This document shows, in pieces, positions 48,679 to 50,995 of a stretch of DNA of 64,000 nt. How positions within the stretch are numbered: position 1 is the first letter of the stretch; each line of letters starts with the position of its first letter. This stretch comes from Octopus sinensis. Lineage: Eukaryota. A model generated the notes under the pieces. That model did no database searches and had not been told where the DNA came from. It worked only from the letters and a program-made list of their open reading frames with translations. The position numbers were made by a program, and so were the translations under genes. The DNA is taken from NCBI RefSeq assembly GCF_006345805.1, contig NC_043015.1, forward strand, positions 43,896,001 through 43,960,000, written 5' to 3'.

Positions 48679-50995
48679 ATTAACAATTAAGGAACGGCCA
48701 TAATAGGCCATCACCCACTAGAAATAACAGCCAAAGCTTCTACCGCAAATAAAGATCAATTCCGTAAACAGGAGAAAATTAAAAAAAAAATTTACCCTGT
48801 AATTTCTTGTACGGTATACCGTTCATCCGCTGTTTAATGGTAAACTAACCTGATTAAATTAAATCAAGCCAATCTTCCATAAGCCCTCGGATTCTTCAGC
48901 AAGAAATAGCTCAAGTCGGAACAGATATTTACACGAGGCATACCCAATCTTGCCAAGTCAATATCTGACCTAAAATTTTCAAATCGTCGCACTCGCGCAA
49001 ATTTATCGGCAGCAAATAAATATCAGCCGTCGATTCCATTACGGAATTAACCAAAAAAATTCATAATTAATCAATATAGGGTGGCAAGGAAAATTTTGTA
49101 GAATTTTATTGCCACCAGCGGCCCAGTGGGAAAAAATTAAATAGTCATAGACCATTTTAAGTTCAACATTAACAATTAAGGAACGGCCATAATAGGCCAT
49201 TCACCCACTAGAAATAACAGCCAAAGCTTCTACCGCAAATAAAGATCAATTCCGTAAACAGGAGAAAATTAAAAAAAACATTTACCCTGTAATTTCTTGT
49301 ACGGTATACCGTTTCATCCGCTGTTTAATGGTAAACTAACCTGATTAAATTAAATCAAGCCAATCTCCATAAGCCCTCGAATTCTTCAGCAAGAAATAGC
49401 TCAAGTCGGAACAGATATTTACACGAGGCATACCCAATCTTGCCAAGTCAATATCTGACCTAAAATTTTCAAATCGTCGCACTCGCGCCAAATTTATCGG
49501 CAGCAAATAAATATCAGCGGTCGATTCCATTACGGAATTAACCAAAAAATCATAATAATCAATATAGGGTGGCAAGGAAAATTTTGTAGAATTTTATTGC
49601 CAACAGCGGCCCAGTGGGAAAAAATTAAATAGTCATAGACCATTTTTAAGTTCAACATTAACAATAAGGAACGGCCATAATAGGCCATTCACCCACTAGA
49701 AATAACAGCCAAAGCTTCTACCGCAAATAAAGATCAATTCCGTAACAGGAGAAAATTAAAAAAACATTACAGGGTAAATGTTTTTTTAATTTTTTCCTGT
49801 TTACGGAATTGATCTTTATTTGCGGTAGAAGCTTTGGCTGTTATTTCTAGTGGGTGAATGGCCTATTATGGCCGTTCCTTAATTGGTAATGTTGAACTTA
49901 AAAATGGTCTATGACTATTTAAATTTTTTCCCACTGGGCCGCTGGTGGCAATAAAATTCTACAAAATTTTCCTTGCCCACCCTATATTGATTATTATGAA
50001 TTTTTTGGTAATTCCGTAATGGAATCGACGGCTGATATTTATTTGCTGCCGATAAATTTGGCGCGAGTGCGACGATTTGAAAATTTTAGGTCAGATATTG
50101 ACTTGGCAAGATTGGGTATGCCTCGTGTAAATATCTGTTCCGACTTGAGCTATTTCTTGCTGAAGAATTCGAGGGGCTATGGAAGATTGGCTGATTTATT
50201 TAATCAGGTTAGTTTACCATTAAACAGCGGATGATGAAACGGTATACCGTACAAGAAATTACAGGGTAAATGTTTTTTTAATTTTCTCCTGTTTACGGAA
50301 TTGATCTTTATTTGCGGTAGAAGCTTTGGCTGTTATTTCTAGTGGGTGAATGGCCTATTATGGCCGTTCCTTAATTGTTAATGTTGAACTTAAAAATGGT
50401 CTATGACTATTTAATTTTTCCCACTGGGCCGCTGGTGGCAATAAAATTCTACAAAATTTTCCTTGCCACCCTATATTGATTAATTATGAATTTTTTGGTT
50501 AATTCCGTAATGGAATCGACGGCTGATATTTATTTTATTGCTGCCGATAAATTGGGCGCGAGTGCGACGATTTGAAAATTTTAGGTCAGATATTGACTTG
50601 GCAAGATTGGGTATGCCTCGTGTAAATATCTGTTCCGACTTGAGCTATTTCTTGTGAAGAATTCGAGGGCTTATGGAAGATTGGCTTGATTTAATTAATC
50701 AGGTTAGTTTACCATTAAACAGCGGATGAAACGGTATACCGTACAAGAAATTACAGGGTAAATGTTTTTTTAATTTTCTCCTGTTTACGGAATTGATTCT
50801 TTATTTGCGGCAGGTTAGAGGTAGAAGCTTTGGCTGTTATTTCTAGTGGGTGAATGGCCTATTATGGCCGTTCCTTAATTGTTAATGTTGAACTTAAAAA
50901 TGGTCTATGACTATTTAATTTTTCCCACTGGGCCGCTGGTGGCAATAAAATTCTACAAAATTTTCCTTGCCACCCTATATGATTTAATTATGAAT
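48679..50995. mobile_element. Retrozyme-like tandem array 2: diverged subfamily of the same ~490-bp unit, ~4.7 copies, internal inversion
   Basis: ATTAACAAT..GGAACGGCC recurs at ~48679, 49168 and 49657. Flip at ~49767. Clearly homologous to array 1 with fixed differences. Four hammerhead motifs; flanked by (TA)n. Confidence 0.85.
49292..49397 (-). ncRNA. Type I hammerhead ribozyme motif (representative of array 2)
   Basis: Minus strand reads ATTTCTTG-CTGAAGA-ATTCG..CGGAT-GAA-ACGGTATACCGT-A^CAAGAAAT. Other copies at 48802-48907 (-), 50152-50259 (+) and 50647-50751 (+). Confidence 0.88.

Follow-up and report, generated by a model that had tools for sequence, protein, structure and literature searches.

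Insertion shape of a hammerhead-bearing tandem repeat in Octopus sinensis suggests copying from single circular RNAs by a Penelope-type enzyme

The window examined here, a 64,000-nt stretch of the 2.72-Gb Octopus sinensis genome (GCF_006345805.1, NC_043015.1:43,896,001-43,960,000), contains two arrays in which a 491-nt unit is repeated; in each array two arms point outward, with (TA)n on both flanks. Array 2 comprises a left arm of 2.2 units on the minus strand (48679..49768), with its outer 3' end at a position we call alpha (+131) and its inner 5' end at +18, and a right arm of 2.5 units on the plus strand (49766..50995), with its inner 5' end at +7 and its outer 3' end at a second position, beta (mapped at +241, mode +237); unit numbering starts at the predicted ribozyme cleavage site. 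The arms meet head to head in 3 nt of microhomology (49766..49768), and the (TA)n target occupies 48503..48677 on the left flank and 50994..51068 on the right. Array 1, of another subfamily, pairs a left arm of 2.7 units (8905..10215, minus strand; 3' end at alpha, +134, and 5' end at +294) with a right arm of 7.4 units (10212..13833, plus strand; 3' end at beta and 5' end at +25). GC content over the arrays is 34-39% in 2-kb windows, the flanks are (TA)n with no LTRs, and the unit is non-coding, with no ORF of at least 120 aa in either array. Copies of a SINE-like interspersed repeat lie at 14030-14450, 51170-51630 and 52110-52490, some of them adjoining the arrays' (TA)n flanks. The window's only reverse transcriptase (RT) sequence belongs to the decayed fragment of a LINE, a non-LTR retrotransposon unrelated to the arrays, at 46593-47150 on the minus strand (within about 46000-47500; PF00078, E 1e-14).

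Each unit carries, in order, stem I, CUGANGA, stem II, GAAA, stem III, GUA and stem I', the layout of a type I hammerhead, with a stem II of about 65 nt whose distal helix is G·U-rich and which also contains an internal loop; internal loops are predicted in both stems I and II. We number its positions by the hammerhead convention. One of the four array 2 hammerheads, at 49292..49397 on the minus strand, is free of indels in the core and proximal stems as assembled, with predicted cleavage after GUA, between 49300 and 49299. As assembled, the copy at 48802..48907 (minus strand; predicted cleavage between 48810 and 48809) is without one A of GAAA, that at 50152..50259 (plus strand; predicted cleavage between 50251 and 50252) has 3 nt duplicated on the 3' side of stem II, and that at 50647..50751 (plus strand; predicted cleavage between 50743 and 50744) is without C3; because the indel rate is about 0.6% per site, these three lesions are probably read errors. 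CUGANGA, GAAA and UH in type I order, together with three covarying helices, identify the motif as a type I hammerhead, and no Rfam hammerhead model matched it, either at the gathering cut-off or with E relaxed to 10, the long stem II being a likely cause. The G10.1-C11.1 pair, which the accessible text of PMC4209133 describes as highly conserved in hammerheads without being strictly defining, is mostly absent from the unit, positions 10.1-11.1 being G-C in 3, A-U in 9 and unpaired in 10 of 22 lineages.

Just past the cleavage site, a nearly invariant motif resembling a 5' splice site occupies +11..+21 of the unit (for example 50262-50272, plus strand). A reading as an intron donor gained no backing, no matching splice joint being listed among contigs assembled from four putative RNA runs. 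Contigs of these four runs, which we guessed to be RNA, cover 29 of 29 unit bins and are uninformative on ends, strand and circles, tandem DNA and circular RNA yielding an identical junction once assembled.

Units of the two arrays are 84-87% identical over their full length, their consensuses differ at 54 places, and sequences intermediate between them are present in the genome. A first-pass annotation of this DNA had read the differences as compensatory changes in all three ribozyme stems, with a single core change at N7, and had taken them as a sign of selection on RNA structure that passive satellite DNA would not be expected to show. The coordinates of array 2 and all of the quoted sequence changes are borne out in both arrays. 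Stem I indeed holds two true double substitutions, and N7 is the sole change among core positions of the invariant type. The reading of stem II stands in part: two double substitutions are real (U-A to C-G and A-U to G-C), whereas a third change is one-sided, turning an A·A mismatch at 10.1-11.1 in array 1 into A-U in array 2, and the ATTCG variant is private to the array 2 insertion (3 of its 4 units), its subfamily having ATCCG. The stem III change is also real, but in the monomer it amounts to a replacement of G·U by G-C on one side; the central GC to AT swap sits in the monomer's tetraloop, represents a single event in the larger alignment described below, and would be compensatory only where two copies pair through the 12-nt palindrome. 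Predicted energies are -15 to -19 kcal/mol for such a stem III duplex and -2 to -6 kcal/mol for the hairpin.

We aligned 23 lineage representatives, one copy per array, spanning variants in the first 25 Mb of C1 and at other sampled loci, and RNAalifold recovered the three-way junction from this alignment unprompted. Across the 23 rows, 95.9% of 737 cells are paired; shuffled alignments give 89.0% (0 of 500 attain the observed value) and slid registers give 28-42%. Double changes occur in 14 of 33 pairs. The tree and the column-pair test used 22 rows, the window copy lacking C3 having been dropped. Eleven of 12 variable proximal stem pairs stay paired with at least two Watson-Crick types, as do 658 of 9720 other column pairs (6.8%), a rough contrast in that column pairs are not independent. 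Tree steps number 0 over 11 core columns and 6 at N7 (U, A or C across lineages), and per column they come to 2.0 for stem I, 2.8 for stem II and 1.2 for the remainder; the flanks are also constrained, with 65 of 164 flank columns invariant. Because most alignment rows had been found through the core pattern, we rechecked the core with core-free patterns and found CUGANGA intact in 99 and GAAAC-N8-GUH intact in 98 of 100 listed copies, counted by eye and with many tandem siblings among them; stem III is palindromic, with G·U allowed, in 96 of 100 listed copies, again by eye. Selection on RNA structure, as first proposed from two arrays, is thus supported by covariation in the larger alignment, where pairing is kept above shuffles, and by an intact core that stays fixed as N7 and the stems vary. 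The hammerhead fold is real and under selection; the class itself is already known.

The view that these arrays are not passive satellite DNA also holds at the scale of the genome, where they belong to a dispersed retrozyme superfamily of thousands of copies. The core pattern has 9806 genome matches against 1164 for a reversed control, and two core-free, family-specific patterns have 4083 matches against 0 and 3594 against 2. Copies are dispersed across many chromosomes as tandem units with one type I hammerhead each, in arms with a median of about 3 units and a maximum of 13.5, and their substitutions from consensus, 0.35-0.7%, mark them as young. An older family, F3 (L061-L090), has the G10.1-C11.1 pair and a GUC site, with arms longer than one unit in 5 of 45 cases; in two of its arms that span two cleavage sites (L065 and L073) the inner copy is, anecdotally, mutated in its core. 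Further, non-homologous type I hammerhead families occur at L140, L167, L172, L174, L178, L179, L180, L182, L157:6629/7129 and L153:6916, with a long AU-rich stem II, an 8-nt palindromic stem III and, in some, inverted pairs.

A second conserved RNA domain covers +41..+260 of the unit (50292..50511, plus strand, in array 2) and adopts a multibranched predicted fold with double changes in 9 of 52 pairs over 18 rows. Within this fold alpha is placed inside a small hairpin loop or immediately after it, and beta falls in an unpaired loop rich in A and U; by analogy with the system described in the accessible text of PMC11167929, we infer that the domain may be the binding and initiation site of a reverse transcriptase. 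In terms of predicted free energy, the active monomer fold lies 2-8 kcal/mol above the ensemble in 9 of 9 references, and circular-fold z-scores did not clearly separate sense from antisense (-5.3 and -5.5 for array 2; 25 shuffles).

The position of these two sites acquires its significance from the anatomy of the insertions. From best-scoring matches, we mapped 36 insertions of the array 2 subfamily and 20 of the array 1 subfamily; junction windows were available for 4 of 20 further array 1-type insertions, hence the smaller sample. In 95 of the 96 ends visible across these 56 insertions, the 3' end falls at alpha (+131/134) or beta (+237), which are separated by a "tail" of about 105 nt; (TA)n directly adjoins 93 of 95 ends, and one alpha is combined with one beta, in either order, in 40 of the 41 two-armed insertions with both ends visible. 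Two arms could be mapped in 44 of 56 insertions, some single-arm ones retaining a short inverted remnant, and the two ends recur in relatives of about 70-98% identity. The junctions (n=43) divide into 26 with microhomology, 11 with inserted sequence, several of these locally templated, and 6 blunt ones. Target-site duplications of non-LTR retrozymes, when present, exceed 4 bp; here a shared flank string was flagged in 15 of 51 insertions, among which a few look real (about 13-29 bp: L006, L192, L203, L220) and most are masked by (TA)n. In the available portions of PMC11167929, a Penelope-like element (PLE) protein nicks both strands of AT-rich DNA in vitro and starts at two internal RNA sites 3' of the hammerhead, both target strands are nicked and extended, and the stretch between the two internal start sites is the PLE tail; in the corresponding portions of PMC8557442, the marks of PLEs include (TA)n targets, inverted 5'-truncated copies and a one-ended tail. 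The octopus insertions agree closely with this picture apart from the length of their tail. The shape of the insertions suggests that each array was copied once from one circular RNA by a Penelope-type enzyme.

The 5' ends of the arms carry a further, subfamily-specific signal. In the array 2 subfamily, 20 of 65 arm 5' ends fall at -5..+25, where 4.1 are expected (p 2e-9), in an interval picked after seeing the data; the first 63 ends, scanned with every window, give p <=0.0003. Both inner ends of array 2 itself (+7 and +18) belong to this cluster, in which most ends stop 6-24 nt short of the predicted cleavage site. No excess in this interval is seen outside the array 2 subfamily: the array 1 subfamily has 4 of 45 ends in the interval despite sharing the same T-rich tract, the contrast between the two subfamilies being window-dependent (Fisher p 0.009 to 0.055), and other subfamilies have 5 of 56 against 3.5 expected. 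The cluster fits both run-off from a cleaved 5' end with trimming and stalling at stem I. An A-U pair at 10.1-11.1 was considered as its cause and rejected, many of those other subfamilies having A-U as well. Predicted folding energies are alike for arrays 1 and 2 (2.4-3.8 and 3.3-3.7 kcal/mol). A cluster in F3 (11 of 45) was left out of the argument because its arms are mostly shorter than one unit and its sample is query-biased; other 5'-end clusters lie at +200-235 in the array 1 subfamily (10 of 45) and at +290-310 in the array 2 subfamily (8 of 63).

Candidate enzymes are encoded in the same genome, where intact RT plus GIY-YIG ORFs of 775-781 aa occur in at least two families that, on comparison of their cysteine motif with the portions of PMC8557442 available, appear Neptune-like. 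One 775-781-aa family also ends in (TA)n, and at L008, near 2011-2080, a retrozyme array and the 3' end of a member of the 781-aa family share one (TA)n tract as their target. BLAST, nhmmer and retrozyme profiles found homology to the unit in 0 of 45 PLE-protein loci, a small part of the PLE candidates (147 matches from 150 of 5029 scored), and two PLE proteins used as tblastn queries matched neither the window nor any of 140 non-PLE loci. In Neptune-like loci L155:1174-4874 (plus strand), L153:3245-6318 (minus strand), L151, L152 and L157-L159, an upstream ORF overlaps the RT-GIY-YIG ORF in the -1 frame. In both Neptune-like families the overlap contains an in-phase U-rich heptamer of slippery type. 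We do not regard the frameshift as a novelty, an ORF1 with frameshift being already described for PLEs in the Fig. 1 legend of PMC8557442. The 3' region of the young 781-aa family (L155:5040-5530) contains CCAAT-like and CRE-like motifs, both repeated, along with a TATA-like box, from which it is likely to be an internal promoter; inspection of this region found no canonical hammerhead.

We propose, with a probability of roughly 0.8, that the unit belongs to the non-autonomous retroelements, as a non-LTR retrozyme that a PLE protein moves in trans, through a series of steps that would account for its structure and its insertions. The unit combines the sequence features that define retrozymes in the accessible part of PMC7229834 with the insertion features of non-autonomous PLEs. 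Arrays would be transcribed as multimers, and hammerhead cleavage after GUA or GUC would free monomers of 475-495 nt, possibly aided by palindromic stem III pairing between neighbouring copies. The monomer would then circularise, by ligation or by being held through stem I. A PLE GIY-YIG endonuclease would nick both strands of the (TA)n target observed at the insertions, and reverse transcription would initiate at the internal sites alpha and beta, about 105 nt apart, one per strand. Both cDNAs would travel around the same molecule by rolling-circle copying, for up to about 13 turns. The cDNAs would finally be joined head to head by end joining of the microhomology-mediated type, as the observed junctions suggest. 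Selection would act on the RNA of source copies, and covariation would therefore arise in both the ribozyme and the initiation domain.

Variation within insertions bears directly on the template. In 52 insertions, 115 substitutions occur two or more times within their insertion; 99 of these occupy every unit covered, 16 are mixed between units, and 0 are confined to one arm. The two arms agree in haplotype in 22 of 22 and 13 of 13 long-armed insertions, compared with 9 of 462 and 34 of 156 cross-insertion pairs, and variants private to an insertion are often fixed throughout it, in all units covered on either arm (18 of 18 units at L190, 14 of 14 at L202). A single haplotype per insertion is most simply explained by rolling-circle copying of one monomer. 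More tentatively, and at odds that we set somewhat below even, two RTs of a Penelope-type protein may read one ribozyme-made circle simultaneously, each rolling round it from one of the two fixed internal sites, with the array 2 ribozyme re-opening its template, ribozyme strength tuning array length and truncation, and the A·A mismatch of other subfamilies representing a selected attenuation; stems II and III of the array 2 subfamily are the most GC-rich, and its stops beside the cleavage site reach about five times chance. Were this extension true, the insertions would record the whole retrozyme cycle in vivo.

The same PLE machinery could instead have copied a linear, largely uncleaved multimer transcribed from a homogeneous source array, with the ribozyme acting rarely or serving in 5' trimming, and with no circle being copied. 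A PLE protein uses unprocessed RNA in vitro and hammerhead cleavage is dispensable for insertion there (PMC11167929, available portions). A transcript of an already homogeneous array would likewise give one haplotype in both arms, and for any single insertion it may fit as well; a linear 5' end would suit those array 2-subfamily ends that lie close to the cleavage site, and the 16 mixed variants are also in keeping with such a template. Against this, private variants are fixed in all units, as at L190 and L202, and therefore need a single-unit bottleneck in the template, which would have to be frequent, so that we consider the linear multimer unlikely and continue to favor copying of a monomer circle.

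Tandem arrays homogenise, as is generally known, and the uniformity of these arrays could in principle have arisen after insertion, had single PLE-type insertions been expanded and homogenised as satellite DNA by unequal crossover and gene conversion, leaving the ribozyme a relic. This scenario is put forward in the discussion of bioRxiv 10.64898/2026.07.22.740005, as far as its available text goes. Here, however, the arrays are small, dispersed and nearly undiverged, their homogeneity extends across inverted arms, and covariation is still accruing between young subfamilies whose core is intact, all of which makes later homogenisation very improbable. Although palindromic read artefacts exist as a recognised phenomenon and this assembly is rich in indels, inverted arms and homogeneity produced by long-read assembly or polishing would be harder still to credit, as the arms stop at two distinct fixed sites with different flanks, junction positions vary by locus, haplotypes are locus-specific and unlike the family consensus, and older families share the layout.

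The retrozyme class and its link to PLEs are not new, because bioRxiv 10.64898/2026.07.22.740005 already argues, in the text available, that animal retrozymes derive from PLEs, based on their co-occurrence and on pLTR similarity in vertebrates; the same source reports in vitro cleavage for 1 of 9 predicted retrozymes. Our search, which covered main texts without supplements and with most subscription papers outside it, found no paper on this unit family or its insertion-level evidence. Retrozymes are thought to move via circular RNA with the aid of PLE proteins, a link that in the portions of the papers compared has so far consisted of co-occurrence and pLTR similarity, and retrozyme repeats show no motif that indicates their partner, according to the accessible text of PMC7761336, which also calls what PLE hammerheads do in vivo a mystery. 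As a ribozyme the unit is ordinary; its value lies in a testable record of retrozyme movement, composed of three countable genomic traces: the two-start signature of PLEs on a retrozyme, a single haplotype across arms and a subfamily-specific excess of 5' ends. Together with more than 15 naturally occurring ribozyme variants, linked by intermediates, these traces open direct tests, such as comparing cleavage rate with truncation profile, and nominate the 220-nt domain as a possible signal through which PLEs insert a non-coding RNA.

Among known systems, the unit resembles the non-LTR retrozymes of coral, mussel and axolotl, as described in the available portions of PMC7229834 and bioRxiv 10.64898/2026.07.22.740005, in its tandem units of a few hundred nucleotides with one type I hammerhead each, low GC content, lack of an ORF, many dispersed loci and palindromic stem III. 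Its unit of 475-495 nt compares with 150-450 nt in the former source and 51-972 nt in the latter, and it differs from these metazoan retrozymes in its stem II of about 65 nt and in a stem III of 4 bp inside a 12-nt palindrome. Two inverted arms, two fixed 3' ends and (TA)n targeting are absent from the retrozyme descriptions compared, as far as their accessible text extends.

These insertion features are shared instead with endonuclease-containing (EN+) PLEs (Penelope/Poseidon, Neptune and Naiad), which in the portions of PMC8557442, PMC11167929 and PMC4209133 available also show an inverted 5'-truncated copy, partial tandems, two internal starts 3' of a type I hammerhead and AT-rich or (TA)n targets. 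In contrast to those elements, the unit has no ORF, its tail is about 105 nt long where theirs is 30-40 nt, its arms contain multiple units on both sides, and no homologous pLTR was found for it in the 45 PLE-protein loci compared. Chlamys non-autonomous elements such as MRC1 (PMC8557442, accessible text) are, like the unit, non-coding PLE dependants with multicopy head-to-tail insertions; MRC1-type elements match autonomous families at their 3' end, unlike the unit, and most Chlamys are described there as having no canonical hammerheads.

Finally, newt satellite 2 and the dimeric hammerheads of axolotl, as presented in the available part of PMC7229834, share with the unit a palindromic loop III in tandem repeats, which permits a double hammerhead, and we liken the pairing of the unit's palindrome to the double hammerheads described in the accessible text of PMC4209133. 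Whereas stem III in newt and axolotl has 1-2 bp and a dimer is required, that of the octopus unit has 4 bp, and cleavage as a monomer should therefore be possible as well.
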